DNA of 64,000 nucleotides from Kiritimatiellia bacterium (GCA_050949565.1 JBMNFY010000010.1:224001-288000); one strand, 5' to 3'; shown: positions 5,489 through 64,000, numbered from the stretch's first letter. Notes: generated by a model not told the origin, from the letters alone. Numbers and translations are program-made.

Positions 5489-5620
5489 CAGAAAACCGAT
5501 TTCGTTTCATGCATTCCAATATCGCGGTCCGTCAAATAGAAAAGACACCGTAGGTTTTTTTGAGGCGGTGACGATCCGTCAAATACTGGACACCGAGGGG
5601 GTCAAGGGACGAGGGGCTGG

Positions 5621-6879: not shown

Positions 6880-7030
6880 GCGAGCCGATTCTAGCACGGT
6901 GTCCAGTATTTGACGGATGCGCTTGATTTCCGGACACCGCGATTTTGGCTACGGTGTCCATGACTATGACATACCGCGATATAGAATATTATTGATTTAC
7001 ATCTCAAATTAGGATATTGTGGTCGGCACA

Positions 7031-7924: not shown

Positions 7925-8124
7925 TTTTCCTGTGAAACCTAGTCTGTGAAACCTTTGTCACCCAAGCGACAAAATAGTTTCTCCTGCCCAATTCCAATTG
8001 CCCCGTGGGGATAGAGGCGCAACTGAAACCAAAGAACGGTGAAAGTTTAACTTGCTCTTTTTAGGCTGAATCGCTTTTCGCATCTGTGATTGCCGGAGCT
8101 GTTGATTGCGTGTATGATGGGGGC

Positions 8125-9048
8125 ATGAAGTCAAGCGTCATGGAGTTTTTCGGTTACGATGGATGTCTGGTGCTGGAAAATGATGTCGGCGTGCGTGTGG
8201 TGCTTACGCCGCTGGCCGGTGGGCGCGTGCTGGAATACGCGTTGAATGGCGTAAATGCCCTGTACCTTGATCCGGCGCAGAAGGGATGGCGTCACCAACC
8301 CGGCGTTCCGTCGGTCGATCCGTGCGGCGGACGGCTTGATGTCGGACCGGAGTGGACGATTCCGCCGCACCCTGATCTGTGGTTGGGGGACTGGACCGGC
8401 GAGATCACGGGAGAGGGTCGGGCGCGGCTGACGAGTCCGCGCGACCGCATGACGGGGTTGAGGGTGGCACGCGATTTCACGCTGGCAGCGGACAGCGCGT
8501 GCCTGTGCGTCGAGCAGCGCGTAACCAACGACTCCGCGCGACCGATCTCCTGTTGCCATTGGAGCCGTACGCTCGCGACCGGCGGCGGTATCGTCCTGAT
8601 CCCTTTGTCGCCCGAGAGCCGCTTCCCGAAACACTACATTCAGTACGGTCCTGGGCCGGTCATGAACTTCCGTCCCGATGATCCGCAGATTCGCATCCGT
8701 GAGGGGTTCCTAGAGATACTCGGGACGCCGCAGCGGCCTAAGCTCGGCATGGACAGTACGGTGGGGTGGTTCAGCTATTTGACGCGGGCCGGTCTGCTGT
8801 TCACCAAACGGTATGCAGTGGAGTCCGAACGGGTCTACGGTGAGATGGCCGGGCTCACGATATCGATCTGGTACTTTAAGGACGAGATGTGCGAGTTGGA
8901 GCCGATTGGTCCGCTTGAGCGCTTGGCGCCGGGGGTGTCGTTCAGCTTTAGCGAGGAGTGGTCGTTGCTACCGTGGCGGTATCCCGCGCCGGGAGAGTGC
9001 GTTGATCTGACGGAGTTGGCTGCGCGTGTTCGCAAAATCGAGGGTTGA
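8125..9048 (+). CDS. Hypothetical protein, galactose-mutarotase-like / DUF4380-like
   Basis: VVLTPLAGGRVLEY, GGRLDVGPE, CELEPIGP..RLAPG..FSFSEEW pattern. Confidence 0.55.
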   Translation: MKSSVMEFFGYDGCLVLENDVGVRVVLTPLAGGRVLEYALNGVNALYLDPAQKGWRHQPGVPSVDPCGGRLDVGPEWTIPPHPDLWLGDWTGEITGEGRARLTSPRDRMTGLRVARDFTLAADSACLCVEQRVTNDSARPISCCHWSRTLATGGGIVLIPLSPESRFPKHYIQYGPGPVMNFRPDDPQIRIREGFLEILGTPQRPKLGMDSTVGWFSYLTRAGLLFTKRYAVESERVYGEMAGLTISIWYFKDEMCELEPIGPLERLAPGVSFSFSEEWSLLPWRYPAPGECVDLTELAARVRKIEG

Positions 9049-9121
9049 GTTCGCATGATCGAGGTTGCCCATTGCGGAACGGGCGTTTATAGTTTGTCTC
9101 AACACGCAAGGAGGAAACAGG

Positions 9122-47333: not shown

Positions 47334-48281
47334 TCAATCCCACATGTAACGCTCGTCATCAGAGCTTTGACGTTGGCAGAACGGACGGACATCCGCGATG
47401 TCGTCGGCATCGCAGGCCAGCATGACCAGCCGGTCGATGCCGAGCGCGATGCCGCCGCAGGGCGGCATGCCGCGTTCGAGCGCGTTCAAAAAGGGCTCGT
47501 CCAGCGGATAGGCCTCTTTGCCCAACGCTTGGCGTTCGCGCGCGGCCTCTTCGAAGCGCGCGCGTTGCGCGGCGGCGTCGCACAACTCGCTGTAAGCATT
47601 CGCGATTTCAAGCCCGCCGATATAAACCTCCCAGCGTTCCGCGACGCTGGCATCGCCCGGCTTCAGCCGCGCGAGTGAAGCTGCTGGCGCCGGGTAGTCG
47701 ATCAGCACGCACGGCGTTGCGCGCGGCAGAGCGGGCTCGATGCGTGTGACCATGTCCATGTCGAAACGGTCCGCGTCCCACTGTGCGGCCGGATCCCATC
47801 CGGCCCAGCGGCGATACGCGTCGCGCACCGTCAGGCGCGGCCACGGGCCGGCCAGTTGGATGGCCGTGCCGCCGTAGGACAGCGTTGTCGTCCCGAAAAG
47901 ATCTGTGGAGACGGCGCAGACCAGCGCTTCGGTATCGGCGAGGATGTCGAGATAGTCGGCGTCCGTGCGGTACCACTCCAGCATCGTGAACTCCGGGTTG
48001 TGTCTGCGGCCGCACTCGCCGCTGCGGAAACAGGGGCCGATCTGGTAGATTCGTTCACAGCCGTCGACGAGCAGCCTTTTCATGTGGAGTTCGGGCGAGG
48101 CGCGCAGCCAGGCGCGACCGGAGGGCGGCACGTCAATATGGGTCTCCTGCGCCGGGGCGGGAATGCGGACAGGCGTTTCAACTTCGATAAATCCACGGGC
48201 ATCGAAAAAATCACGGATGGCCCGCAGGATTTTGCTACGGCGTTCGAGCATGAGTCGTTGCACAGGCGCTCCTCGGCTCAA
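47334..48281 (-). CDS. epmA: EF-P lysine aminoacylase (EpmA/GenX)
   Basis: GFIEVETP, SPELHMKRLL, FRSGE...HNPEFTMLEWY, ERWEVYIGGLEIANAYSEL, GIALGIDRL; no anticodon-binding domain. Confidence 0.93.
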   Translation of the reverse strand: MSRGAPVQRLMLERRSKILRAIRDFFDARGFIEVETPVRIPAPAQETHIDVPPSGRAWLRASPELHMKRLLVDGCERIYQIGPCFRSGECGRRHNPEFTMLEWYRTDADYLDILADTEALVCAVSTDLFGTTTLSYGGTAIQLAGPWPRLTVRDAYRRWAGWDPAAQWDADRFDMDMVTRIEPALPRATPCVLIDYPAPAASLARLKPGDASVAERWEVYIGGLEIANAYSELCDAAAQRARFEEAARERQALGKEAYPLDEPFLNALERGMPPCGGIALGIDRLVMLACDADDIADVRPFCQRQSSDDERYMWD

Positions 48282-48529
48282 TACATTTTTTCGTACTCGC
48301 CCTTGCCCAGCCGTTTCAGTTTCGTGAAGCCGGCGGCTTTCGCGCGGTCATCGAGTTTAGATTTGGAGCGTCCGATAGCCGGCGCGGTGATGACGCGCCG
48401 CACAGGCGCTCCGCAATCCGGGCACGCGGTCAGGCGCGGATCGTGGATCGACTGAACATACTCAAAGCCATTGGCGCACCGGGGACATTGTTGCTTGGGG
48501 CTTGTTGCCTCATAGTCGTAAACAGGCAT
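48278..48529 (-). CDS. FmdB family zinc-ribbon protein
   Basis: MPVYDYE, CPRC, CPDCG..VRRVI. Confidence 0.88.
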   Translation of the reverse strand: MPVYDYEATSPKQQCPRCANGFEYVQSIHDPRLTACPDCGAPVRRVITAPAIGRSKSKLDDRAKAAGFTKLKRLGKGEYEKMY

Positions 48530-48742
48530 AGTTGCTCTCACTTGATTTCTGGGTCATATCCGTATGCGCACAAGCATAGCACAACACATCGTCATATCGG
48601 TATCGAAATCGACTGTCTCGTGTAATCGATAGTGACAGGGGTGTGCGAAGGTCATGCGTTTCGGATGAAAAAGTTACTCAATTCCTAACCATGAAACACA
48701 TGTCGCAAAAGAGGTCGGGGTCTCTTACGTGTAGCATGGCGA

Positions 48743-51122
48743 TCAAACGTGAGAGGTAACAGATTGTAGCCATGTAAAGAAACAAGTTACCTTGACCCTA
48801 ATCCCTGACCTACATGCGCATTTATCCTCTGCAATAGCGGCTCGAGCCGCACCTACGGCCCGGTCATAGGCCATTTGTATCCTATCTGCAGTATACAATA
48901 ATTTCATTTCTTCCATTGAGCGATCATAGTCGGCGATACCGCCATCAGTAAGCACCCATCCATCCTCATCTCGGATCAATACATACCAGAGGTCATTACA
49001 GGCAACAACCGTTGCTGCCGCATTCTTCCCCAGGCGTATATCTGCAGGGACTTGACTTTTTTCCCTGACTTCCGGCGGAATCAAGCCGCCATATTTTTTT
49101 ATTGTCTTATCAGAAAAACCGTGTCCGGCGAGCACCTCATATGTGCAGTCCGGCACGTTATAGGTTTTTAACCCCAATTTATCTGTTTTGCGCAAAGGAT
49201 CGTTCTGCACAAACCAATATAAGTTTAATCCCCCATTTTCGTGGATAGGATCCCGTCTCATCCATCGCCCGAGACCGGGCGCGTATGGCCGGAAGTTGGT
49301 ACATCACGAGGCTGGTTTCGGCATCGAACGGCTTGGTGCTGAAACGGTGTGTGAAGGTGTCCGCGAGGTCACCAGACTGGGCGGCTATCTCGCCGAAGGG
49401 CGAGTATTCGTAATGTGCGCGGATGTTGCCGTAAACGTCAACATAAGCGGTAACGTTTCCGTTCGCATCGTAGCAGGGGAAAAACGTGCCGTCGGAGCGG
49501 ATGACCGCCAGCAATCCGCCGACGCCGCCCGCGCCTTGCAATGTGCCGGACACGTCCGGCCCCCAGAGGTAGCGGGTCACGTTCGTGGTTCCGGACTGCG
49601 CGTCAACAACTACCTCGGCGGTCTGGTTCCAGCCGTCGTAGATGAACGTGCGGGTTTCCATGACATCCCATGTCCCCGGCTGCGACGGGTCAAATGGGTA
49701 ACTCGCACCCCTGCCTGAAAGCCGTTTCTTGATTTTGGCGACGCGCAAATTCTTGTGGTTGTAGACGTACTCCAGCCTGATCGCGCCGTTGGTGGCGAAG
49801 CCGTACGGTTGGGAACGGACGAGCCTGTTCTCCGCATCCCACGTATGGTGCCAGTCCCCGAGGCGCGTCATGTTGCCGTCGGCGTCGTAGGTTGGATTAA
49901 CCACAGAGGACACAGAGGGCACAGAGATTTGGGTGTACTGGTTCAGTTCGTTGGCGAGGTGCTCTGTGGTCTTTGTGTTCTCTGTGGTTGCTATTCTGTT
50001 GCCGATGGCATCGTACGCGTAACCGTAGTCGTTCGTGCCGATGACCGCACTGATGACTTCAGAACGCGCGTTGTAACCGAAGCTGTCGGCGTTGCGCGAG
50101 ACGCGCCGTCCGGCGGCGTCGTTGGCGTAGTCGTAGGCAGAGATCAAGACAGGATTAACATGATTTCCCGCTTTGCGGGCGCATGGGTTTACATGATTAG
50201 AGACGGCGGAGATGAGGTTGCGGCGGGGTTCGTAGGTTTTGGTGACAGCCAGCGGGCCGGCGGTGTAACCGGAAACGAGGTCAGAGCCGGGGAGGCAGGA
50301 GTAGTTAACCACGGAACACACAGAACACACGGAAGAGGATACGCTGTGTAAGCGGCCGAAGGTGTCGTAGCCGTACGATACGGCGTGATCGCCGTCGAGG
50401 GCGAATCCCGTCTGTCGGCCGAATGCGTCGTAAGACCGCGTGATTGCAACGCCGTCCTGAATCTCACCGACAAGGTCAAGCCCTGCATACTCAAAGAGGT
50501 GTGATGACACCGCTGTTATGGCCGAGACCATGCGCCCGAGACGGTCATAGGCGAAGGAGATGTCGGGCGTGTTGCCGCTGTAATGGACATTGGTCAATTG
50601 TCCCAATGCGTCGTAGGCATAACTGGTTGTGACGCCACGCGACCACACGCGGGTTGCAAGACGCCCGCCTTCTGTGTAAGTGTAACGGACGCGCGCCCCG
50701 TCGGCGTAGACCTTGTTCGTGAGTAACCCGGTGGCGGCGTCGTAACACCATCGTGTTACGTCGAGGGAGGAGTTAGGATTTAGGATTGAGGAGTTGGTGA
50801 CCGACGCGAAATCGAACGTGTCGTCCCGCGTGGTGGCCATGGCGATTCTGCGGCCTCGTGTGTCGTAGGCATACGCCACCGGATAGGTCGCGCCCCATTG
50901 CGCGGTGACATTGCCCGCACGGTCGTACGCGGTGGAGACCGCATTGCCGAGCACGTCGGTCTGGGAGACGGCGCGGCCCTGGCTGTCGTAGCCGGTCGCG
51001 GTGACAGCCGTCAGGGTCCCGTATGTGGTTTCATTGGTCACGGCGCTACCAAGGGTATCGTAAACGACGGCGGTTGTCGAGACCGTCCCGGCGGCGTTCG
51101 TGACGGTGCGGGAGACGGCGCG
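48743..51122 (-). pseudogene. Rhs cassette 6 (core fragment + C-terminal domain), frameshifted at ~49293
   Basis: YD repeats; GGAAGTTGGTAC vs GGAGCTGGTAC in cassette 5 shows a 1-bp insertion; continues RDPIHENGGLNLYWFVQNDPLRKTDKLG. Confidence 0.88.
50031..50483. repeat. ~450-bp block apparently identical to 53233..53685
   Basis: Direct comparison of Rhs cassettes 6 and 5 (offset 3202). Confidence 0.9.
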
Positions 51123-51790
51123 CCTTTAACACATAGACCAGATTTCAGTGTCTCTTGACAATCAATCTCGGCGAGCACCATATTGTGAATCTTGTCCGGT
51201 GCGAGAACGTACACTTTGCCCGTCGGTTTGTCGTCGTGTACGAAAATATGGTTAGGTGGGTATGCAGTATATAAGCCGACCACAAGCCCCAGTCCAGAGC
51301 GTTTTTTGCCCGTTGCATCCGAGTAACAAAGGGCTTTCAGATGCTCTGGGAATGGGTATACAAGCAACTGTTTGTCCTTTTTCACTATGCGGCACTCGTA
51401 TATTGTCCGAAATAATTCCAGTAACTCTCCCATTTTGATGAATTTTATATTCAGTTCGTCGCGGGGATACAGAACGCTCCATGTCGGTTCCGGTACCGAT
51501 AATGAGCGCTTCAACCGCATCTGGACATCGACAACCCATTTGGCAAGGACTAAATCGTTTGTCATATCGGAGGAAATCTCAATTCCCGGCAATACCGGAA
51601 CGAGCATTATTTTCTCCGTCAATCCCTCGGCGTGGATTAAATCGTTCAGATGTGCAATCCAGACAATCATTCCACCCTTGGGCAACGAAACAGCCTGTAG
51701 CATCCGACCCTCGAAGGATCTCTCAGGGGATGCTCCAGCCGTCAGAAACATGCCGCACACAACTGCGATCAGAACCAGCTTCATTTGCAT
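51038..51790 (-). CDS. Partner (immunity-position) protein of Rhs cassette 5, secreted, STN-like; 3' end fused to out-of-frame Rhs DNA
   Basis: Signal peptide; LNIKFIKMGELLELFRTIYECRIVKKDKQLLVYP; last ~28 aa read from Rhs sequence beyond the 51122 junction. Confidence 0.7.
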   Translation of the reverse strand: MQMKLVLIAVVCGMFLTAGASPERSFEGRMLQAVSLPKGGMIVWIAHLNDLIHAEGLTEKIMLVPVLPGIEISSDMTNDLVLAKWVVDVQMRLKRSLSVPEPTWSVLYPRDELNIKFIKMGELLELFRTIYECRIVKKDKQLLVYPFPEHLKALCYSDATGKKRSGLGLVVGLYTAYPPNHIFVHDDKPTGKVYVLAPDKIHNMVLAEIDCQETLKSGLCVKGAPSPAPSRTPPGRSRQPPSFTIPLVAP

Positions 51791-53901
51791 CCCTCCTCGA
51801 GTAGCTTCTCAATGTCAGCAAGCTTTTTTTCCAAAACCGGCACATAAGAACTATAGGCAGCGCATTCACTCTCCGCTTGGCTACGAATATTAGGTGCTGT
51901 CGCTTTGGAGTAATCAGAACAGTCCACGCCAGCGGAACAGGTGGTTCTCATGTAAGCAGCCGCACCACTGATCGCCCTCGCGACAGACAGTGCCTTTTGG
52001 TAATCACAACAGCACCAATGCTCAACTGTGGCCAACTTCCCTTTCGCCCAAGTAAATGCCTTCTCCATGCACTGGACATGCTTCCATTCATGGCCTCGAT
52101 AGGATGTGCCGACCCCTGGGATGTTTTCATCTGGATCGGTGTCGGGGTCGAAGCGTACTGTCGCTTCACATTTGGAGCCGGAGTATGAAATCCGGAACTT
52201 GTTTTTATCATTTTTTGATTGAGCAAGATGGCAGGTTTCGATTTTTAACCCTTCGAGAAGGGTCATCCCGCCCAAATCGGTCTGTCCGCCGCCTCCCGGT
52301 AGTTTTGATTTAACATAGGAAACCTTACATTTTCCGCATTCTGTCGGCCACTCGGATGCGTCAAACAAGCCCCAAGGATCTTTTTTGTTTATCGAATTGT
52401 TTTTCACAAATCCGTACAGATTCCGACCACCACGCTCCCCAATCGGATCGCGGCTCATCCATCGCCCGAGACCGGGCGCGTATGGCCGGAGCTGGTACAT
52501 CACTAGGCTGGTCTCGGCATCGAACGGCTTGGTGCTGAAGCGATGCGTGAAGGTGTGGGCGAGGTCGCCGGATTGGATGACTATCTCGCCGAAGGGCGAG
52601 TATTCGTAATGGGCGCGGATGTTACCCGCCGCGTCCACATAGTCCGTGACGTTGCCGTTCGCATCATAAGAAGGGTAATAGGTTGTTAGACTGTTAGGCT
52701 GAGCAAGATCAGCGGTAGTAACAGCGAGAAGCCCGCCGACGCCGCCCGCGCCCTGCAGGGTGCCGGACAGGTCGAGACCCCATGTGTAGTAGGTAACGTT
52801 GGTGGAAGGCGCGACCTCGTCTATCACGATCTCCGCCGCGATGTTGTACCCGTCCCACACGTAGCGGCGGGTCTCGATGGCGTCCCATGTGCCCGGCTGC
52901 AAGGGGTTGAACGGATAGTCTGCGCCTCTGCCTGAAAGTCGTTCGGTAATCTTCGCGATCCGAAGGTTGCGGTGATTGTACTGATACTTGAGCCTGACCG
53001 CGCCATTGGTGGCAAAGCCGGCGGGTTGGGAACCGGTCAGCCGGTTTTCCGCGTCCCATGTGTGATACCACTCTCCGAGGTACGTCATGTTGCCGTCAGC
53101 ATCATACGCCACGGCAATGGGAGGCGTGACGGCGGTGTACTGGTTAAGGCGGTTAGCAGTGTAGCTGTTGGTGACGGCGTTGAACGCTGACCAAACGCGG
53201 TTGCCTATGGCATCGTACGCATAACCGTAGCTGTTCGTGCCGATGACCGCACTGATGACTTCAGAACGCGCGTTGTAACCGAAGCTGTCGGCGTTGCGCG
53301 AGACGCGCCGTCCGGCGGCGTCGTTGGCGTAGTCGTAGGCAGAGATCAAGACAGGATTAACATGATTTCCCGCTTTGCGGGCGCATGGGTTTACATGATT
53401 AGAGACGGCGGAGATGAGGTTGCGGCGGGGTTCGTAGGTTTTGGTGACAGCCAGCGGGCCGGCGGTGTAACCGGAAACGAGGTCAGAGCCGGGGAGGCAG
53501 GAGTAGTTAACCACGGAACACACAGAACACACGGAAGAGGATACGCTGTGTAAGCGGCCGAAGGTGTCGTAGCCGTACGATACGGCGTGATCGCCGTCGA
53601 GGGCGAATCCCGTCTGTCGGCCGAATGCGTCGTAAGACCGCGTGATTGCAACGCCGTCCTGAATCTCACCGACAAGGTCAAGCCCGGCGTACTCAAAGAG
53701 ATGCGACGACACCGCCGTGATAGCAGATACCACACGCCCGAGACGGTCATAGGCGAAGAAGACGTCGGGCGTAGTGTCACTATAGTTGATGCTTATCAAC
53801 TGACCGAGCGCGTCGTAGGCATAACTGGTCGTTATGCCGCGCGACCAGACACGCGAGGCGAGAAAGCCGTTTCGTGCGCGTTTAATTGTGCCAACCGTCA
53901 T
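51781..53901 (-). CDS. Rhs cassette 5 with Cys-rich HExxH C-terminal domain
   Basis: GAGGVGGLL, YEYSPFG, RWMSRDPIGE.GG.NLYGFV.N.SINKKDPWG; tip has GHEWKH. Confidence 0.9.
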   Translation of the reverse strand: MTVGTIKRARNGFLASRVWSRGITTSYAYDALGQLISINYSDTTPDVFFAYDRLGRVVSAITAVSSHLFEYAGLDLVGEIQDGVAITRSYDAFGRQTGFALDGDHAVSYGYDTFGRLHSVSSSVCSVCSVVNYSCLPGSDLVSGYTAGPLAVTKTYEPRRNLISAVSNHVNPCARKAGNHVNPVLISAYDYANDAAGRRVSRNADSFGYNARSEVISAVIGTNSYGYAYDAIGNRVWSAFNAVTNSYTANRLNQYTAVTPPIAVAYDADGNMTYLGEWYHTWDAENRLTGSQPAGFATNGAVRLKYQYNHRNLRIAKITERLSGRGADYPFNPLQPGTWDAIETRRYVWDGYNIAAEIVIDEVAPSTNVTYYTWGLDLSGTLQGAGGVGGLLAVTTADLAQPNSLTTYYPSYDANGNVTDYVDAAGNIRAHYEYSPFGEIVIQSGDLAHTFTHRFSTKPFDAETSLVMYQLRPYAPGLGRWMSRDPIGERGGRNLYGFVKNNSINKKDPWGLFDASEWPTECGKCKVSYVKSKLPGGGGQTDLGGMTLLEGLKIETCHLAQSKNDKNKFRISYSGSKCEATVRFDPDTDPDENIPGVGTSYRGHEWKHVQCMEKAFTWAKGKLATVEHWCCCDYQKALSVARAISGAAAYMRTTCSAGVDCSDYSKATAPNIRSQAESECAAYSSYVPVLEKKLADIEKLLEEGCK

Positions 53902-53921
53902 ATGGTACGCTCCCTTCTTCG

Positions 53922-54398
53922 TCAATCCTTCTGTTGTTCCAAGAGGATCATCGCGGTCTTCGCATCACAGTTTCTTAAACCCATAACCATCTCGCAAGGA
54001 GTTTGGGCAGCAGATGCGTAAACACTCTCTGGGTTACCCACAACCTTATCATCAATAAAAACAATATACATAAGCCCGTTATCAATCAAATCCATCCATT
54101 TTTTATTGTCGCTGTCACCCGACTCACCACCAAAAGCCCAAGCCCATACATGTTGGCTGTCCGTATTCTGTGGCAACCCAACAATGCGTTCAACCTGTGC
54201 CTTGCTCATCCCTTTTTTTATACGTGACAAAACAAAATTGTGATGCCGCTCTATTTCACTTGCCCGCTCACTGGCGGGCGTCAGGCGGATTCTTTTTATA
54301 GTATTGATTTCCCAACGTCGATATACGACCAATCCTCCGATACCAAGCAAGAAAAGCGTTGTGGCGACCTTGACTAATAAACGGTTGAACTTAATCAT
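53922..54398 (-). CDS. Partner protein of Rhs cassette 4, membrane-anchored, BamE/SmpA-like
   Basis: N-terminal TM; RIKKGMSKAQVERIVGLP...W.W...YIVFIDDKV. Confidence 0.7.
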   Translation of the reverse strand: MIKFNRLLVKVATTLFLLGIGGLVVYRRWEINTIKRIRLTPASERASEIERHHNFVLSRIKKGMSKAQVERIVGLPQNTDSQHVWAWAFGGESGDSDNKKWMDLIDNGLMYIVFIDDKVVGNPESVYASAAQTPCEMVMGLRNCDAKTAMILLEQQKD

Positions 54399-54406
54399 AG
54401 TGCCTC

Positions 54407-56960
54407 CTATTCTGCGGAAAAATAAATGCGTTTAGCAGGACTGCTCGGGCCATCAGGAACAGTGTGGATCACCAGTCTAAACGGCTGAAGGCCACTCTTG
54501 TCAGGCCGCGCAGTTACGCTAATGTACAAGTCTGTTCCAAGGTAGACGCCAACATGCCCAGGGAAGGAAATGATGTCGCCAAAAACTGGGGTACGCATGC
54601 CTTCAACTCCAGTCAAAGGTTGCTCCCAAGTTATCGTCGTTTTGTCCCCTCCGCCATCTTTCTTTTGAATGATCCATACGACCCTGAAGCTCCCCATGTT
54701 TCGTGAATTGAACCACTCGCTGGCAGAAGGGTAGCGATAGCCGAATTTCCACCACGCATCATCACGAGGCACGATATTACTTTCGAATCCAGCATACTGT
54801 ATTACGGCCACGTATTTGCTGCAGGTTGCTCTGCTCTCGGTCGGTGCATAGTACCTTGCTAATGCCGGATCTGCCCAAATTCTAAGAGCGTGGAGCCCAA
54901 CCCTCAAGTTCGCTGGATCTTGAGGCCCTTTTACAGCATCAATCCGAGCTGTCATGTCTGCAATGACAGCTCGTACTGCCCTGGCAAAGTCTGGACTGCC
55001 TTTCTCCGATTTTTTTGCTAGCGACTCTAGCCTTGTCAGTATCGTCGTGTCTGAAGAAGTTTGGGGACGTAGCCCATTGACATCAAACACATCAACAGGA
55101 CTATTTCTGGCGAAACAGTATAAGTTGTTTCCCCCACGCTCTTCAATCGGATCTCGATTCAACCAGCGCATGAGTTTGGGGCTGTAAAAACGGTAGCCGT
55201 AGTAATAGAATCCGGTTTCGTGGTGGAGGTACTTGGTGCTGAACCAGAAGTTGAAAACTCCGGCCATCGGCCCGGATGCGGCGCGGGTTTCGCCGAAGGG
55301 GCCGTACTCGCGGTGCGCGACGGTTGCGCCAGACTCGTTAATATAGTCTGTGACATTGCCGTTGTTGTCATAGATTGGGAAGTACCACGCATCGTTGATG
55401 CGGGTGGCGAGCAGACCGCCCACGCCGCCCGCACCGCCGCGCGTTCCTGAGAGGTCCTTGCCCCAGACGTGCTCGCGAGTTTCAGTCACGCCGCCGGTGC
55501 GACTTATTTTTTCCAGCACGGGCAGCCAGCCGTCGTAGATGAAGGTGCGGGTTTCCACGGTGTCCCATGTGCCCGGCTGCGAGGGATCCATGGGATAGCC
55601 CGCGCCGCGTCCGCTCAGCACTTCCACGTGCGTCTCCACGAGACGGCTCTTATGGTCGTAGCGGTTGAAGGTTCTGCGTGCGCCGTTGGTGGCGCCGCCC
55701 CAGCCGGGCCCGGAGCGCACCAGCCGGTTCTCCGCGTCCCACGCATGGACGAAACGTCCGTCCCACGTCATGTTGCCATCAGCGTCGTGGACTGGATTAA
55801 CCACAGAGGGCACAGAGGACACGGAGATTTGGGTATACTGGTTAAGGGCATTGGCGGTATAGGTGTTGGTGACCGCATTGCACGACACCCAGATATTGTT
55901 TCCAATACCATCATACGAATAGTTGAAACAGTCGGCACCGATCACCGCGCCGGTGACTTCGGAACGGGCGTTGTAGCCGAAGGTGTTCGCGTTGCGGTTG
56001 GTCACATTGCCGAGAATATTGTAACCGTACCCTATCGCCGAATGTGACGAAACGCCGACCGTGTTTGATACGGCTGTGATAAGGTGCCTGCGGTACATGT
56101 CGCGGGTGACGGCGCGGGTGACGCTAAGCCCGTTTGCAAGAGTGACGGCATAGCCCGCGTCCCAGCCGTCGGCGGTAAGCGCGTAAGCCACAGTGAAGGC
56201 ATCGTTCGAGGTCACGGCAAGACGGTTCTCTGCGTCATAGCCATAATAAACTGGAGTGTTGCCGACATGCAACGCGGATAGGCGGCGGCGTTCGCCCAAT
56301 TCGCGGGTCAACGCGCAGGTGTTTGTGTCAACGATGACTAGCTCGTTGGTGGCGATGCCGGAGAGGCTGTTTACGTATTCGTACCGTGCGACGGCGTTTG
56401 ACGAGGCCGCAACGCGGCCAAAAACGTCGTAGGCGTGATAAACGTCCGGCGTGGCGTCACTGTAGGTGACGCTTGCCAGTTGCCCCAGCGCATCATAGGC
56501 GTTCTCTTTCCATGCTCCGCGAGCCCATGTCGTGCGGAGCGGTTTGCCGTTTTGCGTGTGCGTGTAGGCAACGTGCGAGCCGTCAGCGTAGACTTTGTTC
56601 GTGAGCAGTCCCGTGGCATGATCGTACTCCCAACGTGTCTCGTCGCCGTCATCGTTCTCGTCGCGGAAGGTGCGCATGGATATGCGGCGTCCGGCGGTGT
56701 CGTAAGTGTAGGCGACTGGGTAGGTCGCGCCCCATTGCGCGGTGACGTTCCCCGCGCGGTCGTACGCGGTGAAGATCGCATTGCCGAGCGCGTCGGTCTG
56801 GGACACGACGCGGCCCTGGCTGTCATAGCCGGTCGCGGTGACAGCCGTCAGGCTCCCGTATGTGGTTTCATTGGTCACGGCGTTACCAAGGGTATCGTAA
56901 ACGACGGCGGTTGTCGAGACCGTCCCGGCGGCGGCGTTCGTGACGGTGCGGTTGGTGACG
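54407..56960 (-). CDS. Rhs cassette 4 with NlpC/P60-like (papain-fold) C-terminal domain
   Basis: YYGYRFYSP...[15 protein letters not shown]...PVDVFDVNG; tip has TCSKYV...GDIISFPGHVGVYLG; Rhs similarity starts ~56960 (ORF open to 57163); true start unclear. Confidence 0.88.
56143..56617. repeat. ~475-bp block nearly identical to 58956..59430
   Basis: Direct comparison of Rhs cassettes 4 and 3 (offset 2813). Confidence 0.9.
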
Positions 56961-56984
56961 CTGGGAGAGGGCTGGAACTTGTTG

Positions 56985-57218
56985 TCACTTTCTGGTTTCA
57001 TCCATCCTCTCCGCTCCCGCTTCATCGGCCCAGTTTGTACATGTGTTCCCATTCGTTCCGTTAGTCGGTGTTTTAAGTTGCGACACAACTTGTTTGGCAC
57101 GAATTGTTGCCCGTCGATTAGATTGGTGTTGATAAAACAGATACATAACTTGTACGAACACAAAATACACTATGAAAACAATGACTATGCACAAAACAAT
57201 CTTGCCGAACAGCTTCAT
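56985..57218 (-). CDS. Small membrane-anchored partner of Rhs cassette 3, possibly truncated
   Basis: MKLFGKIVLCIVIVFIVYFVFV TM segment right after the Rhs stop. Confidence 0.6.
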   Translation of the reverse strand: MKLFGKIVLCIVIVFIVYFVFVQVMYLFYQHQSNRRATIRAKQVVSQLKTPTNGTNGNTCTNWADEAGAERMDETRK

Positions 57219-57225
57219 CACGCCC

Positions 57226-60099
57226 TCACTTTCCCATGTTTTCAGTGTTTGGATCACTCCACCACCAGGCCAGTCCATAATAGCCCAAATACACTGCGCC
57301 GGAATCTACCGCAATGTGATCTTTCCATGCTCCCAAACTGCTGTAGTCACCTGTGCCTCTGTTGTCCGAATAACAGGCGTAAAACATTCCCAGGCCTAGT
57401 TTGTGTGGGGGAGAAACTTCACTAGGGAAGACAACACCATCAAAGCTACGGTTAATTTCGAAGCCGAGCGGATATGTACCATGACCCGCATATATAAAAC
57501 CATAAATTCCAGAAGTTTCCCAAAGCGCTTTAAATTCGGAAACACTGTCGCTGTGTTTCGAGAAAATCACTTTGTATCCGCTGTTCGCATAACTAACGGA
57601 CAGTGACTCCGCTGTTCGACGATAGCTTGAAACTACCGACACGGGGAGATCGTGCCACGATGGTTTTGATGTAAATACGACTATCACGTTAGGCACAGCA
57701 ACCTCACACGGGGTTTTGCCGTCATCGGTCTTCCCATCACTATGTATTCTTGCCCATTTATGGATTTCGTTCAAATCGAGCTTTAATAGTGTGGCCAAAC
57801 CCTCCAAGGTATCACCGCTTTGCCGTATATAAACTCTACGTCTGCCCCCATCAATCGTATCTCCTTTCTTCCAAAGCCCCAAATAATCCCATCTGTTCAT
57901 TGGGTCATTCCCGACAAAACCATACTCATTCAACCCGCCGCGATCCCCGATGGGATCACGATTAAGCCAGCGCATGAGTTTCGGGCTGTAGAAGCGGTAG
58001 CCGTAGTAATAGAGTCCGGTCTCGTGGTGGAGGTACTTGGTGGAGAACCAGAAGCTGAATGCATCGGCCATCGGCCCGGACGCGGCAAGGGTCTCACCGA
58101 AGGGGCCGTACTCGCGGTGCGCGACAGTCGCGCCTTGCGCGTCGATGTAATCCGTGACATTACCGTTGTTATCATAGAGCGGGAAGTACCACGTATCGTT
58201 GATGCGGGTGGCGAGCAGTCCGCCCACGCCGCCCGCGCCGCCGCGCGTTCCTGACAGGTCTTTGCCCCAGACGTGTTCGCGGGTTTCAATCACGCCGCCG
58301 GTGCGAGTGATTTTTTCCAGCACGGGCAGCCAGCCGTCGTAAATGAAGGTGCGGGTTTCCACGGTGTCCCATGTGCCGCCCTGAGACGGATCGAACGGGT
58401 AACCCGCGCCACGTCCGCTCAGCATCTCCACGCGCGTCTCCACGAGCCGACTCATGTGGTCGTAGCGGTTGACAACCCTGCGCGCGCCGTTGGTGGAGCC
58501 GTCCCATCCCGGCTCGGAGCGCGTCAGCCGGTTCTCCGCATCCCACGCGTGCCACATCTTTCCGTCCCACGTCATGTTGCCGTCGGCGTCGTAGGAAGGA
58601 GAAAGGCTGTAAGGCTGAAGGCCGTAAGACTGTAAGACAATATTGGAATACTGGTTAAGGGCGTTAGCCGTGTAGGTGTTGGTGACGGCGTTGACCGATA
58701 TCCAACAGTTGTTGCCGATGGAGTCATAGGCGTACCGGCTGGCGGTTGATCCTATGTCCGCTGACGTGACTTCGGAACGGGCGTTGTAGCCGAAGGTGTC
58801 CGCGTTGCGGTTGGTGATGCGCCCCAGAAGGTCATGCCCGAATGACAGCGCATTCGCCATCGTGCCATTGACCGCGTTTGTGATTGTCCCGATCAAGTGT
58901 CTGCGGTGTGGATCGCGGGTGACGGCGCGGGTGATGGTGAGCCCGTTTGTGAGGATGACGGCATAGCCCGCGTCCCAACCGTCGGCGGTAAGCGCGTAAG
59001 CCACAGTGAAGGCATCGTTCGAGGTCACGGCAAGACGGTTCTCTGCGTCATAGCCATAATAAACTGGAGTGTTGCCGACATGCAACGCGGATAGGCGGCG
59101 GCGTTCGCCCAATTCGCGGGTCAACGCGCAGGTGTTTGTGTCAACGATGACTAGCTCGTTGGTGGCGATGCCGGAGAGGCTGTTTACGTATTCGTACCGT
59201 GCGACGGCGTTTGACGAGGCCGCAACGCGGCCAAAAACGTCGTAGGCGTGATAAACGTCCGGCGTGGCGTCACTGTAGGTGACGCTTGCCAGTTGCCCCA
59301 GCGCATCATAGGCGTTCTCTTTCCATGCTCCGCGAGCCCATGTCGTGCGGAGCGGTTTGCCGTTTTGCGTGTGCGTGTAGGCAACGTGCGAGCCGTCAGC
59401 GTAGACTTTGTTCGTGAGCAGTCCCGTGGCGGCGTCGTAACGCCACTGCGTTACGTCACCGTCATCGTTCTCGTCTCGGAAGGTGCGCATGGATGTGCGG
59501 CGACCGGCGGTGTCGTATTCGTAGGCGACCGGATAGGTCGCGCCGGACTGGCCGAGAACCTGACCGAGGCGGTTATACTGCGTGAACACGGCATTGCCGA
59601 GCGCGTCGGTCTGGGACACGGCGCGGCCTTGGCTGTCGTAGCCGGTCGTGGTGACAGCCGTCAGGGTCCCGTATGTGGTTTCGTTGGTCACGGCACTGCC
59701 AAGGGTATCGTAAACGACGGCGGTTGTCGAGACCGTCCCGGCGGCGTTCGTGACGGTGCGGGAGACGGCGCGGCCGAAGCCGTCGTAGGCGAGGAGCGTT
59801 GCCGCGTCCGGCCCGGCGCTCTCCAGCTCGCGCCCGTACAGCGTGCGGCGGACACGCGGCGCGGTGCTTCCTGCCTGCGAGGTCTCGGCGATGATGTCGG
59901 TGCCCGGCTCGAAGGCGCGGGTGACGGTCGTCGTTGTGCCGTCGGGCGAGACCGTGACGGTGCGGCTGAGCAGCGCGGGCGAGAACCCGGTGAGCTGCTC
60001 GCGGGTGACGGATACCGCGCCCTGACCGGACAGGAGGAAACGAGCGAGGGAACGTCCTGCCCATATCAGTATCCCGTTATTTTGTCCGTTATCCTTCAT
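57226..60099 (-). CDS. Rhs cassette 3 with LysM-like plus caspase-fold-like C-terminal domain
   Basis: Long YD-repeat core; PMNRWDYLG; tip YIRQSGDTLEGLA then FIYAGHG...FYACYS. Confidence 0.9.
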   Translation of the reverse strand: MKDNGQNNGILIWAGRSLARFLLSGQGAVSVTREQLTGFSPALLSRTVTVSPDGTTTTVTRAFEPGTDIIAETSQAGSTAPRVRRTLYGRELESAGPDAATLLAYDGFGRAVSRTVTNAAGTVSTTAVVYDTLGSAVTNETTYGTLTAVTTTGYDSQGRAVSQTDALGNAVFTQYNRLGQVLGQSGATYPVAYEYDTAGRRTSMRTFRDENDDGDVTQWRYDAATGLLTNKVYADGSHVAYTHTQNGKPLRTTWARGAWKENAYDALGQLASVTYSDATPDVYHAYDVFGRVAASSNAVARYEYVNSLSGIATNELVIVDTNTCALTRELGERRRLSALHVGNTPVYYGYDAENRLAVTSNDAFTVAYALTADGWDAGYAVILTNGLTITRAVTRDPHRRHLIGTITNAVNGTMANALSFGHDLLGRITNRNADTFGYNARSEVTSADIGSTASRYAYDSIGNNCWISVNAVTNTYTANALNQYSNIVLQSYGLQPYSLSPSYDADGNMTWDGKMWHAWDAENRLTRSEPGWDGSTNGARRVVNRYDHMSRLVETRVEMLSGRGAGYPFDPSQGGTWDTVETRTFIYDGWLPVLEKITRTGGVIETREHVWGKDLSGTRGGAGGVGGLLATRINDTWYFPLYDNNGNVTDYIDAQGATVAHREYGPFGETLAASGPMADAFSFWFSTKYLHHETGLYYYGYRFYSPKLMRWLNRDPIGDRGGLNEYGFVGNDPMNRWDYLGLWKKGDTIDGGRRRVYIRQSGDTLEGLATLLKLDLNEIHKWARIHSDGKTDDGKTPCEVAVPNVIVVFTSKPSWHDLPVSVVSSYRRTAESLSVSYANSGYKVIFSKHSDSVSEFKALWETSGIYGFIYAGHGTYPLGFEINRSFDGVVFPSEVSPPHKLGLGMFYACYSDNRGTGDYSSLGAWKDHIAVDSGAVYLGYYGLAWWWSDPNTENMGK

Positions 60100-60114
60100 T
60101 TCATTTCCCGGTTT

Positions 60115-60552
60115 TTAATAAAAAATGATCCCGTTGGATAACCTGACTTTGTAGCCAGCCTGTGAAGCTATTCGAGTTAAAACCTCTTCAACGGATGCAC
60201 TGGTCATTTGTATTGAAACTGAATTTCCAACACCGTGTGTTTCCACTTTTGATAAGTCGAATGGATCGGAAATGACGGACTTTGTTTCGTGTGACTGCAC
60301 GGTGTAGCTCACGCCGTCAGGATAACCAAGCTCCCCCACAATGTGCTTATTCAGAAGATCCATTGCCCCCGTCAAATCTGGCGACTGGATTTCTATGTTT
60401 TTTAGAGTTGTGGTTCGCAAAAATGACAATAAAGTCTTGTCTTTCGTGGACAAACCCCTTTCAGGAATGTAAGGCGTTTCTTTACAAACCGAACATCCTA
60501 GCGATAGCATAACAACACAGGCGCATAAAAAAAAGAGTTTCGTCATAAACAC
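60115..60552 (-). CDS. Lipoprotein, STN-like (second partner of Rhs cassette 2)
   Basis: Lipobox LSLGC; VSIQMTSASVEEVLTRIASQAGYKVRLSNGII. Confidence 0.7.
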   Translation of the reverse strand: MFMTKLFFLCACVVMLSLGCSVCKETPYIPERGLSTKDKTLLSFLRTTTLKNIEIQSPDLTGAMDLLNKHIVGELGYPDGVSYTVQSHETKSVISDPFDLSKVETHGVGNSVSIQMTSASVEEVLTRIASQAGYKVRLSNGIIFY

Positions 60553-60589
60553 CTCTCATCAAATAGTAGGCAAATTTTTTTCGACAAGC

Positions 60590-61078
60590 CTATGGGAACG
60601 GCACATCGGCAGGTGTTATCCACACCCAATGTTCATACACATAGAATTTCATACTTGTTGCATTACACACCAATTCTAAGGCATCCCACATGCAAATGGA
60701 GTGTGCAACCACAGGCGGAATCACAGGGACTGTGTTGGTTTCTCCATTGGCTGTCTTCTCGGGAAGTTTCAATATGAAACTCAAGCCTCGTTGTTCCAAC
60801 GGGATTTTGGGGCTGTCAAAATCTCGGCTGGCCTGTTTGAAAAAATCTACCGCATCAACGATTGTTGCCGGTGGACGGAACGTCAATTCAGGGATGACAA
60901 TTTCGTGTAATTTTCTAACAATTTCCTGCTCCGAACAGACGCACCGGTTCTTTTCTGTCAATGTCGGAGTACGTTCTTTAATCGAACATCCCGCACACCA
61001 AGCAACTATCAAGAAAAATAGTCGTGCGAATAGAACAAAACTTTTTCCGTTCATTTCGCTCTTTAGAATGATTCTCAT
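60590..61078 (-). CDS. Lipoprotein, STN/secretin-N-terminus-like (first partner of Rhs cassette 2)
   Basis: Lipobox-like CAGC; KLHEIVIPELTF..ATIVDAVDFFKQASRDFD...ICMWDALELVCNATSMKFYV. Confidence 0.72.
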   Translation of the reverse strand: MRIILKSEMNGKSFVLFARLFFLIVAWCAGCSIKERTPTLTEKNRCVCSEQEIVRKLHEIVIPELTFRPPATIVDAVDFFKQASRDFDSPKIPLEQRGLSFILKLPEKTANGETNTVPVIPPVVAHSICMWDALELVCNATSMKFYVYEHWVWITPADVPFP

Positions 61079-61105
61079 GTTTGTCCTCCGAAAAAGAAAA
61101 CACCA

Positions 61106-62749
61106 TTACTGAACCTTGACCGTTGCAGATGCGGTTATTTTCTTGGGTTTTGCGTATCCTCCTGAATAGACCACGACAATTTTTGTGTCTCCTTTGGTCA
61201 TTTTTTCAATACGCATAGCGAATCCTCTAAACTCCACATCGCGTACACAATCATTATCCTTCTTATACTTCTTCGAGTACGCGAATTTTGTTCCGAGTGT
61301 AACAGCCCACAGTATTTTTTTATCACCTCGTGTCATTCCTAACCCGTTAATCATTTGAGAAGCGAGGTCATTGACAACACTTGATGGTAATTTTATTGGA
61401 ACATTAACTATTTTTGGTGCCAGCCATTTGCCCAATGTATATGTTTTAAAATGACCAAAATATGAATCGGCATCCCCTTGTCCGCTAAATTCTGCCCACT
61501 CTGGACAGCCAAAGGAATGAGCCTCAACATCTTGGATCGTAAGAACGGCTTCCCATTCCGCGAGTCCTAAATAATCCCATTTGTTCGCGGAGTCATTATT
61601 CACAAAAATAGACAAATTCAACCCGCCTTTTTCCTCCATTGGGTCGCGATTGAGCCAGCAACCTAGTTTTGGAGCATAGTGGCGATAGCCATAATAATAA
61701 GAGCGGGTTTCTGCATCCCAGTATTTCGTAGAGAAACGGAATGTGAAGGTATCGGCGAGGTCGCCGCTTTGTGCGGTGATCTCGCCGAAAGGCGAGTATT
61801 CGTAATGGGCGCGGATGTTGCCCGCCGCGTCTACATAGGCGGTCACGTTTCCGTTCGCGTCGTAGCAGGGGAAGTAGGGCGTGCCGTTGCGCACAACGGC
61901 CAGCAACCCGCCAACGCCGCCTGCGCCTTGCAGGGTGCCGGAGAGGTCGGTGCCCCAAACGTAGTAAGTGATGTTGGTAGAGGGCGTGACCTCGTCTATC
62001 ACGATCTCCGCCGCGATGTTGTAGCCGTCCCACACATAGCGGCGGGTCTCGATGGCGTCCCATGTGCCCGGCTGCAAGGGGTTGAACGGATAGTCTGCGC
62101 CGCGTCCGCTCAACTGCTTCTTGATCTTCGCGACGCGCAAATTCTTGTGGTTGTAGACGTACTCCAGCCTGACTGCGCCGTTGGTGGCGAACCCGGCGGG
62201 TTGGGAACTGGTCAGCCGGTTTTCCGCATCCCAAGTGTGATACCAGTCTCCGTAGTACGTCATATTGCCGTCAGCGTCATACGCCACGGCAATGGGAGGC
62301 GTGACAGCGGTGTATTGATTGAGGCAATTGGCGGTATAACTGTTTGTCAGAGTATTCACCGCCGACCAGACACGGTTGCCTATGGCATCGTACGCATAGC
62401 CGTAGTTGTTTGTGCCGATGACAGCGCCGATGACTTCCGAACGGGCGTTGTAACCGAAGCTGTCGGCGTTGCGGGAAACGCGCCGCCCGGCGGCGTCGTT
62501 GGCGTAGTCGTAGGCAGAGATCAAGACAGGATTGACATGGTTAACATGATTGGAGACGGTCGTTATGAGGTCGCGGGCGGGTTCGTATGCGACCGACCGC
62601 CCAAGTCCCGCCGTGCCGGTCATGCCTGAGATCGTGGCCATGCCGGGCAGATAGGAGAAACCGAAGGCGAGCGCGGACACCACAGAGACAGAGGCGACGC
62701 ACCTGAAATCACCACGTCCCCCTTTCATTTTGGCGGGAAGCATATGCAT
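61106..62749 (-). CDS. Rhs cassette 2 with unknown C-terminal domain
   Basis: Core motifs, WLNRDPMEEKGGLNL...SANKWDYLG, low-GC tip. Confidence 0.9.
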   Translation of the reverse strand: MHMLPAKMKGGRGDFRCVASVSVVSALAFGFSYLPGMATISGMTGTAGLGRSVAYEPARDLITTVSNHVNHVNPVLISAYDYANDAAGRRVSRNADSFGYNARSEVIGAVIGTNNYGYAYDAIGNRVWSAVNTLTNSYTANCLNQYTAVTPPIAVAYDADGNMTYYGDWYHTWDAENRLTSSQPAGFATNGAVRLEYVYNHKNLRVAKIKKQLSGRGADYPFNPLQPGTWDAIETRRYVWDGYNIAAEIVIDEVTPSTNITYYVWGTDLSGTLQGAGGVGGLLAVVRNGTPYFPCYDANGNVTAYVDAAGNIRAHYEYSPFGEITAQSGDLADTFTFRFSTKYWDAETRSYYYGYRHYAPKLGCWLNRDPMEEKGGLNLSIFVNNDSANKWDYLGLAEWEAVLTIQDVEAHSFGCPEWAEFSGQGDADSYFGHFKTYTLGKWLAPKIVNVPIKLPSSVVNDLASQMINGLGMTRGDKKILWAVTLGTKFAYSKKYKKDNDCVRDVEFRGFAMRIEKMTKGDTKIVVVYSGGYAKPKKITASATVKVQ

Positions 62750-62794
62750 GAACCAATACCCAACAAAACACAGATCGTAAGAATAAGAATGAAC

Positions 62795-63283
62795 CTACGG
62801 AGTCGTTTCACGTTGTTCATGGCTAACACTGCGGCTCTCCGTTCCCTTTTTTCGTGGAACCAGCCTCAAATCCTTCCAGCACATGGAACCATTCATCAGG
62901 TTATTAAACGTTTGCTCGTCCGCCATATAGGCTCCATACCTGCCACATACGTACACCAATCTGTTTTTGTCTGACCATGGCTCCTTTTGATACACGAGTA
63001 TGTTTGCTTCGCGATTCGTCGGAAGCACGTAACCCTCCTGCCAGTTGAAATCTCGATATTTAGCGTCGATTTCGCACATATCGCTAAATGAATCGGGACG
63101 CCTACCATTGTGCATCGCCATATACTTCCTGACGTCCCGTGCAATAGACTCAACCTGCGCGGCTTTTTTCTTTATCTTGAGTTCGGCACCAGACAACCTT
63201 CGTGGCGGAATGATACCGAATCGCACATAGATCGCTAGTAAAAGGACAACACCTATCCAAGCAAACAACTTTTTTCTTTTCAC
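62795..63283 (-). CDS. Partner protein of Rhs cassette 1, membrane-anchored, pseudopilin-like
   Basis: GAGGAGG RBS; N-terminal TM; QVESIARDVRKYMAMHNGRRPDSFSDM...ILVYQKEP. Confidence 0.65.
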   Translation of the reverse strand: MKRKKLFAWIGVVLLLAIYVRFGIIPPRRLSGAELKIKKKAAQVESIARDVRKYMAMHNGRRPDSFSDMCEIDAKYRDFNWQEGYVLPTNREANILVYQKEPWSDKNRLVYVCGRYGAYMADEQTFNNLMNGSMCWKDLRLVPRKKGTESRSVSHEQRETTP

Positions 63284-63299
63284 CCATCCACCTCCTCAA

Positions 63300-64000
63300 C
63301 TATTCGAACCATCCCGAATATGGTTGGTTCTTAAAATGTCCACTTGTTCGATAAGTCTTTTTCAATACTGAGTAAACTATCCCCTTGTGCCGTCCCTGAG
63401 CACAGGTCGCCACCCATTTGAAGGACCACGACCACGCCGAACGATAAATGCCGAAAGTAAAGCTCGGGCCATCCGGTTCATCCTCCTCTGCCACGCCGCT
63501 TGCTTCGTGGTAACCTCCTTCTGTCCCATGGTCTAAGACGTAAGGTCCAATTGTGCCGCACATCAAAAATTTTCGCACGTACCGATCAATATGAATCGCA
63601 TCGCAACATTTTCTTTCCTCAGCATCCATTGTGTATGTCACATGAACCTCAAGTTTACCGCTATTCTTAGCGTATGGGACTGTTCCCCAGACAGCTGAAT
63701 AAGTCCAATTCCCTTCTGTTCCAACCATTGTTTTCCGACCCAATTTGTCAATTTTGTTCACCGGATCATTCTCAGTAAACCCATATAGATTGTCCCCGCC
63801 TTCTTCCTCAATCGGATCACGGTTCAACCAGCGGCCAAGTTCCGGACTGTAGAATCGCTCGCCGTAGTAATACAGCCCGATCTCCTCGTCCAAGTATTTG
63901 GTCGAGAACCAGAAATGGAGGTCGCGGACAAGCGGCCCCGTGGCTACGATAGTTCTGCCGAACGGGTCGTATTCGCGGTGGGCGACCACGACACCGTTAC
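63300..64000 (-). CDS. Rhs protein/cassette 1, C-terminal part (continues beyond window)
   Basis: [43 protein letters not shown] followed by a unique tip. Confidence 0.9.

Follow-up and report, generated by a model that had tools for sequence, protein, structure and literature searches.

An Rhs toxin array with exported partner proteins, including a secretin-type N0 domain, in a Kiritimatiellia bacterium

Polymorphic-toxin immunity proteins are mostly cytoplasmic and belong to dedicated families. Here we describe an array of Rhs polymorphic toxins in a Kiritimatiellia bacterium (GCA_050949565.1) in which the small genes behind the toxin tips uniformly encode exported or membrane-anchored proteins, one of which, P2a, is a captured secretin domain. 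The window analysed is a stretch of 64,000 nt (JBMNFY010000010.1:224001-288000, here G000:C10:224001-288000), and the array was followed beyond the window end into a further stretch, L002. We consider it fairly probable, judging from the sequences, that the partners are envelope-located immunity proteins for envelope-acting Rhs toxins and that they are built on periplasmic protein-binding folds. The toxin tips would then meet their partners in the cell envelope, and the cognate immunity protein of each tip would be the product of the gene or genes immediately behind it, would be kept in the periplasm through a lipid anchor, a transmembrane (TM) helix or a signal peptide, and would act by binding the tip. 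For several partners the scaffold would be a small periplasmic protein-binding fold of a kind that otherwise belongs to an envelope machine. P2a would be a free N0/STN domain of the Amuc_1098-type pilus secretin kind, P2b probably a divergent domain of the same fold, and P4 probably a BamE/BLIP-like domain that acts, like BLIP, as a periplasmic protein inhibitor. Since N0/STN and BamE/BLIP domains are both small periplasmic protein-binding modules, they are plausible raw material for inhibitors.

P2a (60590..61078, minus strand) is a 162-amino-acid (aa) lipoprotein encoded directly behind tip 2 (61109-61558, 150 aa), the C-terminal tip of orphan Rhs cassette 2 (61106..62749, minus strand, with an RHS_repeat match). 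It has only 8 close relatives. A Pfam scan of P2a and seven close relatives gave no family at E ≤1, and thus no match to the STN family (PF07660, cut-off 28.4 bits). A profile of the P2a relatives, in turn, matched 923 representative proteins at E ≤1e-3 and 249 at E ≤1e-10, with host proteins of 100 to 2979 aa in which the domain is often repeated two to five times. Among the 62 best of these proteins, Pfam placed Secretin on 19 (16 above cut-off), STN on 7 (3 above) and no family on 30; the remaining 6 showed TPR/Sel1, TIR, GDPD, a VWA anti-sigma architecture or a weak CpXC match. In the two cases checked, P0019 and P0026, the STN stretch falls within the C-terminal third of the P2a-type domain. 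NCBIfam assigns P2a itself to Amuc_1098_fam (E 9.3e-13, model positions 244-357 of 805). A secretin open reading frame (ORF) of the same genome (C17:1466571-1469207), with a PilM gene nearby, carries the genome's only other copy of the domain; its residues 422-550 are 48% identical to P2a over 129 residues (E 6e-37). At the level of the phylum, the domain was found in 99 of 401 sampled genomes, nearly always once and inside a frame of 800-1200 aa.

The predicted structure agrees with this assignment. The AlphaFold model of P2a, made from a 34-sequence alignment, has a pLDDT (predicted local distance difference test score) of 83 overall and >95 over residues 50-160, and shows a linker helix followed by beta-alpha-beta-beta-alpha-beta-beta. 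VIA-align of the model against 48,161 chains scored 9.4 with the EscC periplasmic domain (root mean square deviation 2.4, 85 aligned), 8.6 and 7.9 with PilQ N0, 8.0 and 7.7 with anti-sigma/PupR domains, 6.5-6.6 with GspD N0 and 6.1 with the FecA signalling domain. These are the same families as those on the Foldseek list, which names PilQ N0, XcpQ, EscC, DotD, VirB7, anti-sigma/TonB-receptor signalling domains and phage or type VI secretion system (T6SS) hub domains; DotD and VirB7 are among the fold matches. In the part of Sgro 2019 (PMC6536674) drawn on here, the VIA-align families are listed as members of the N0 superfamily. A PDB sequence search with the P2a family returned nothing below E 0.1. 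We firmly assign P2a to the N0/STN fold, as a single domain whose homologue is the N0-like domain of Amuc_1098-type pilus secretins.

Set beside the known domains of this kind (PilQ N0, 4ar0/4av2; EscC, 3gr5; GspD N0, 3ezj/4jtm; the FecA/PupA signalling domains; the C-terminal domain of FecR-like anti-sigma factors), P2a has the same layout, its match list is filled with them and its sequence relatives sit in secretins. With DotD and VirB7 it shares being a lipoprotein with a single N0 domain. In contrast to the secretin systems, however, P2a is encoded in a toxin cassette and not in a secretion-machine operon, it is without any Pfam STN score, and within the domain family it stands apart as a clade with a long stem. 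The tree, built from 131 domain sequences, unites the 11 rows of the P2a group in a single clade with a support of 100 in the Shimodaira-Hasegawa-like approximate likelihood ratio test (SH-aLRT), on a stem measuring 0.73 changes per column. Closest to this clade, at a weak support of 77, are two-domain secretin-type proteins, and the domain of the resident secretin lies outside the nearest 39 tree rows listed for the clade. A recent copy of the resident secretin domain does not fit this tree, given the long stem and the absence of nesting. As judged from the tree, P2a is an established lineage that arose inside a domain family borne mainly by secretins; it is not a recent copy of a host gene.

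The resident Amuc_1098-type secretin (L041:7995-11196; G000:C17, about 1465995-1469196, minus strand) is itself split into two overlapping ORFs of 875 aa and 217 aa, with Pfam Secretin positions 2-58 on the first and 51-169 on the second. Its relatives are encoded in one frame of 1000-1200 aa, and the split reflects a frameshift or, alternatively, an error of assembly. The genes upstream are PilM-like and TSP3-repeat genes. Outside secretins, the P2a-type domain occurs as tandem repeats or fused to TIR, to GDPD or to a zf-HC2 anti-sigma domain with VWA (P0013, P0019, P0020, P0071, P0074 and P0077); from its protein contexts, its behaviour is that of a mobile periplasmic module.

Tip 2 and P2a are inherited as a pair. 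In the metagenome locus L043, a region 75% identical to that of tip 2 is followed by a P2a homologue at 74%, which runs directly into the next Rhs cassette. P2b is not there, so that the P2a homologue is the sole candidate immunity gene of that tip. A second metagenome locus, L044, has a tip with 64-65% identity to tip 2 and, behind it, a P2a homologue at 57%; a further locus, L042, is near-identical to the window. This paired inheritance, together with the position of P2a alone behind tip 2 in L043, is the behaviour of a cognate immunity gene, and P2a is likely the cognate immunity protein of tip 2. The co-inheritance result covers tip 2 and P2a only. Prediction of a complex between tip 2 and residues 45-162 of P2a scored 0.00 in both runs, which were made without controls and give no verdict either way.

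The cassette that follows the P2a homologue in L043 (L043:7522-9158) carries a tip that is distantly like tip 5 and holds an HExxH-like string. Behind this tip stands a 139-aa protein that has a signal peptide and matches no Pfam family. We take its C-terminal part, by eye and with no tool support, to recall ExbD/TolR-type periplasmic domains.

Export signals are present throughout the partners. As a test we asked for a 15-residue window with a mean Kyte-Doolittle hydropathy of at least 2.0 within the first 70 residues, which all 8 of the 8 partners passed, six of them in the window and two outside. The background in the same genome is 26% (607 of 2322) for ORFs of at least 300 aa and 15% (340 of 2309) for ORFs of 150-299 aa, so the result is far from chance and the earlier note on this DNA was right to ascribe export signals to all six partner genes that it considered. 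Lipobox-like ends of the type ..GC can be read in the translations of P2a, P2b and the outside partner at L002:2492-3199, and the lipobox Cys is invariant in the P2a family (8 of 8 sequences). Because the partners are exported or membrane-anchored, the encounter between toxin and partner would be placed in the envelope.

The same tendency is visible in related genomes. Rhs cores were found in 68 of 101 genomes sampled from the same order, one of which (G007) has 50 Rhs core matches. An order-level sample of 30 Rhs loci gave 25 with an Rhs ORF and a callable downstream ORF, while two had no room for one; two of the 25 sequences are identical and one comes from the second Rhs locus of the present genome. 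The hydropathy test is passed by 15 of these 25 partner-position ORFs, and several more fall just below the threshold.

The earlier note had gone further and likened the partners to borrowed domains of secretins, the β-barrel assembly machinery (BAM) and pilins. As to the three STN domains it had proposed (P2a, P2b and P5), pairwise BLASTP of the three proteins showed no similarity beyond signal peptides, and the three cases come apart: P2a is firm, P2b probable and P5 unsupported. P2b (60115..60552, minus strand) is a 145-aa lipoprotein and the second gene behind tip 2. It matches PF07660 at E 7e-4 and 19.8 bits, below the 28.4-bit cut-off, and the family is matched by 4 of 5 P2b family members, with a best E of 1.4e-5. 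In a six-frame search of the 4.66 Mb genome, P2b is the best PF07660 match (21.2 bits, genome-wide E 1.3e-3). A first hhalign run against a shallow P2a alignment picked up the lipoprotein signal only. When the P2b profile without the signal peptide was compared with the P2a-family profile, the score was 25.6 (E 1.2e-3, 75 columns), a value reached by 0 of 150 column shuffles (mean 10.9 +/- 2.0, max 17.7). A PDB sequence search with the P2b family gave nothing below E 0.1, and no homologues outside its own genome were found in 400 phylum genomes or in the genome_contigs collection. P2b is a probable divergent N0/STN domain, a distant relative of the P2a domain as far as profile comparison can tell. 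Since it is absent from L043, it may be a second immunity gene or the leftover of a lost cassette.

P4 (53922..54398, minus strand), the 158-aa partner of tip 4, has an N-terminal TM helix and no lipobox Cys. The BamE/SmpA motif that had been noticed in it is present: the match to PF04355 (E 4.5e-4, 20.4 bits) is to the first half of the family model, positions 9-39 of 71, and runs through the motif ..IKKGMSKAQVERIVGLP.., although it stays below the 23.2-bit cut-off. P4 is the best PF04355 match in the six-frame whole-genome search (21.5 bits, genome-wide E 8.6e-4). NCBIfam gives a weak OsmE match (E 0.008), and the Atlas feature and structure leads all go to BamE/BLIP clusters. The Atlas's own model of P4 (pLDDT 0.59) reaches TM-scores of 0.34-0.45 to BamE-type clusters, all under the bar. 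No homologues were found outside its own genome among 100 order-level genomes, and a PDB sequence search returned nothing below E 0.1. P4 as the organism's BAM subunit is ruled out by the TM anchor without lipobox and by the lack of relatives in the 100 order-level genomes; BamE (SmpA/OmlA), unlike P4, is a lipoprotein. On the profile matches, a BamE/BLIP-like domain placed in a new setting is the probable identity of P4. BLIP inhibits an enzyme as a periplasm-type protein inhibitor, and this inhibitor role is the one that we propose for P4.

The remaining resemblances were not supported. For P5 (51038..51790, minus strand), the 250-aa signal-peptide partner of tip 5, an STN domain finds no support: Pfam matches 0 of 5 members of its family even at E ≤10, and 19 of 150 shuffles do as well as its hhalign score of 16.0. 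Its AlphaFold model (5-sequence alignment, pLDDT 32.6) is unusable. With P5 set aside, both supported N0/STN-like genes sit behind the same tip, tip 2, and the argument for a reusable scaffold behind the unrelated tips of cassettes 2 and 5 falls. P1 (62795..63283, minus strand), the 162-aa partner of tip 1 with an N-terminal TM anchor, had been compared to pseudopilins. It has no Pfam family at E ≤1 and is not among the five PF08334 matches of the genome. A prepilin-peptidase site consists of a G followed by an FTLxE-type N-terminus, and the P1 N-terminus, MKRKKLFAWIGVVLLLAIYVRFG..., has no such motif. A pseudopilin identity (T2SSG, PF08334, or DUF1559, PF07596) is not supported for P1. The sole leads towards one are Atlas clusters in which T2SSG is carried by 13% and SBP_bac_10 by 17% of members, at a score of 0.91. 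No homologues were found outside its own genome among 100 order-level genomes, and a PDB sequence search gave nothing below E 0.1.

We also asked how far such domains are found behind other Rhs tips. We scanned 25 partner-position proteins with Pfam, of which 24 come from related genomes and one from L043; STN, BamE, pilin or Imm families were found on 0 of them, and MORN repeats on one. Given that scan, the borrowing of envelope-machine domains is not shown to be general. Nor is the P2a domain linked to Rhs as a rule: among the other short forms of the P2a domain in the sampled genomes, 0 of 7 lie near an Rhs core, which speaks against generality. The hidden Markov model for the Rhs core used in this search was built from the present locus, and 4 of the 7 stretches are cut by contig ends.

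These results bear directly on the possibility that, apart from P2a, the likenesses (P2b to STN, P4 to BamE, P5 to STN and P1 to pseudopilins) are pattern matches to common small alpha/beta motifs, with no meaning for evolution or function. We think this unlikely. It would account for Pfam scores that all fall below the curated cut-offs, for P5 and P1 being without any statistical support, and for the lack of such families in all 25 partner-position proteins. However, P2b and P4 are each the top genome-wide match of their own Pfam family (E 1.3e-3 and 8.6e-4), the profile match between P2b and P2a beats 150 of 150 shuffles, and every Atlas feature and structure lead for P4 points to BamE/BLIP.

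Several points weigh against envelope-located immunity as we read it. Binding, neutralisation and the site of toxin action are what we infer, and an exported partner alone is no proof of periplasmic toxin action. For the folds, Foldseek with the P2a model gave no match at E ≤1e-3, P2b and P4 both remain below the curated Pfam cut-offs, P2b is absent from the homologous locus L043, and P1, P5, P3 and the two partners outside the window are without an assignable fold. Outside the Rhs core, the tip regions scanned match nothing in Pfam or NCBIfam and no PDB sequence.

A different role for P2a itself, which we regard as quite unlikely, is that of a decoy. Tip 2 would bind the N0-like domain of the pilus secretin of the recipient as its target or entry handle, and P2a would be a lipid-anchored copy of that domain that protects the producer, perhaps together with P2b. 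P2a is homologous to exactly that domain, and besides the overall identity of 48% to the resident secretin, a hand count in the alignment of the two finds about 36 identities among 44 residues of the domain's first half. The conservation of the tip 2 and P2a pair in other loci also fits. The usual receptors of contact-dependent and colicin-type toxins are abundant, conserved envelope proteins. For Akkermansia, the part of Ottman 2016 (PMC4960237) drawn on here gives the secretin Amuc_1098/PilQ as by far the most abundant outer-membrane protein. The first half is, however, the core that the domain family conserves throughout, so that its presence in P2a is not specific to mimicry, and the P2a clade stands on its long stem (0.73) and is not nested with the genome's own secretin domain. 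Between a decoy and a plain inhibitor, no result here favours the decoy, which is compatible with everything seen.

That P2a and P2b are accessory factors that dock, present or export Rhs at the secretin or outer membrane, in the manner of DotD and VirB7, is very improbable: lipoproteins with a stand-alone N0 domain are known among the components of secretion machines (Sgro 2019, PMC6536674, in the part drawn on here), DotD and VirB7 are among the fold matches of P2a and two genes stand behind tip 2, but P2a travels with an orphan tip and not with the full-length Rhs N-terminus, the tip in L043 would be left without an immunity gene because P2a is the only gene before the next cassette, and factors of this kind are normally constant across cassettes whereas here the partner differs in every cassette.

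The anatomy of the array is consistent with cognate immunity genes directly behind the tips. The array lies on the minus strand, from 48743 through the window end to about C10:299147, and consists of one full-length Rhs just outside the window followed by seven 5'-truncated orphan cassettes. Behind the conserved core end, the C-terminal tip differs from one truncated Rhs copy to the next. Rhs_assc_core (TIGR03696) matches 4 of the 7 tip regions scanned (E 9e-22 to 5e-6); the genome total for this family is nine matches, seven of which are among the matches listed, and the total includes two outside the array at C10:343545 and C10:347993. Each intact tip has one or two small ORFs directly downstream; the five named in the earlier note each begin only a few bases from where the Rhs ORF, or the partner ahead of it, stops. 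The partner ORFs take up the space between the tip stop and the next cassette and leave no room for a further gene. The partners differ between cassettes, and those compared are mutually dissimilar.

The full-length Rhs (L002:3787-11147, minus strand) lies beyond the window end and has an N-terminus with a hydrophobic membrane or signal segment. It is followed by outside partner 1 (L002:3342-3794, 150 aa, TM) and outside partner 2 (L002:2492-3199, 235 aa, lipobox). Next comes the end of cassette 1, with core end and tip 1 at 63300..64000 (minus strand), the ORF of which runs on into L002:1-2434 and has its Rhs_assc_core match at C10:287738-287971; P1 and the tip 2 cassette with P2a and P2b follow. 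Orphan cassette 3 with tip 3 occupies 57226..60099 (minus strand). P3 (56985..57218, minus strand), a 77-aa protein with a single TM segment that starts at the stop of Rhs 3, is a candidate membrane immunity protein. Orphan cassette 4 with tip 4 (54407..57163, minus strand) resembles the other Rhs copies from about residue 70 and is followed by P4. Orphan cassette 5 with tip 5 lies at 51781..53925 (minus strand) and is followed by P5. The five partner ORFs named in the earlier note are all present on the minus strand at the coordinates given there, and P3 is the sixth partner in the window. The last cassette, orphan cassette 6 (48743..51041, minus strand), is split by a frameshift between core end and tip into 49179-51041 and 48743-49261 and has no partner ORF downstream; it looks like the decaying end of the array.

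The tips themselves resemble little. Tip 2 has no Pfam, NCBIfam or PDB match, and PDB sequence searches with tips 2 and 3 gave nothing below E 0.1. Tip 3 shows only a weak LysM-like Pfam stretch (E 0.12), and the PDB search with tip 4 led to Tc, YenC and teneurin chains through the shared core end of Rhs alone. The end of tip 4 (...GDIISFPGHVGVYLG..., a GHVGVYLG-type string) presumably recalls the His motif of NlpC/P60 amidases, a likeness seen by eye that no tool confirmed. Tip 5 holds a string, GHEWKH, that we likewise take by eye to be HExxH-like, with no tool confirming it. Both likenesses would suit toxins with targets in the envelope.

Other observations concern the surroundings of the array. 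The full-length Rhs is encoded in two overlapping frames (7293-11147 and 3787-8868), which implies a frameshift near L002:8000, and its N-terminal part contains bacterial TSP3 repeats. Directly past the array (window positions 47334-48541, minus strand) lies an 87-aa Zn_ribbon_8 (FmdB-like) gene (E 4.9e-12), and in the same minus-strand stretch a 315-aa ORF whose product looks, by eye, like a lysyl-tRNA-synthetase-like EpmA/GenX protein. The contig carries a second Rhs locus at a distance of about 55 kb (G000:C10:343545-348217), in which the ORFs are 1933 aa and 651 aa long; one of its tips has as its partner a 60-aa membrane protein with apparently two hydrophobic segments.

Rhs arrays with orphan cassettes and adjacent immunity genes are already known, as are the periplasmic or lipoprotein immunity proteins of T6SS and type IV secretion systems (T4SS). 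Tsi1/Tai and Tli are periplasmic immunity proteins that are encoded beside T6SS effectors and inhibit them by binding. Like these and the X-Tfi lipoproteins of Xanthomonas, the partners described here are small, periplasmic or lipid-anchored and encoded next to the toxin, but the T6SS and T4SS effectors ride secretion machines, whereas the Rhs has only an N-terminal membrane or signal segment. The X-Tfi lipoproteins, too, are encoded beside their effector and inhibit by binding, according to the part of Sgro 2019 (PMC6536674) drawn on here. With the Rhs/RhsI orphan-module cassettes of enterobacterial Rhs and Bacillus WapA (Zhang et al. 2012, PMC3482391), the array shares a full-length Rhs with 5'-truncated core fragments, a different tip after the TIGR03696 core end and a small unrelated gene at once downstream. 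It differs from them in that all partners are exported or membrane-anchored and no partner matches a Pfam family above cut-off. In the portion of Zhang et al. 2012 (PMC3482391) consulted, secreted or TM immunity proteins are linked to toxins acting at the cell surface, exported ones are the exceptions, and Imm65 is the only lipoprotein immunity protein of that collection; the words 'secretin' and 'OmlA' each occur 0 times in the first 300,000 of the 357,715 characters of its text. No description of an N0/STN-domain immunity protein was found in the part of the open-access literature searched, supplements excluded. Against this background, the array is a variant in which every partner is exported and one of the partners is a captured secretin domain.

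The hydrophobic N-termini of 15 of the 25 partner-position ORFs and the presence of Rhs cores in 68 of the 101 genomes suggest that the Rhs toxins of this order, which belongs to the PVC (Planctomycetes, Verrucomicrobia and Chlamydiae) group, may act largely at the envelope. The pairing of tip 2 and P2a would offer a testable case in which new immunity proteins arise by capture of a periplasmic binding module from an envelope machine. P2a also allows a test of immunity by mimicry of the toxin target, and if the decoy role were true, immunity would be conferred by mimicking the envelope target of the toxin and not by a dedicated inhibitor fold.

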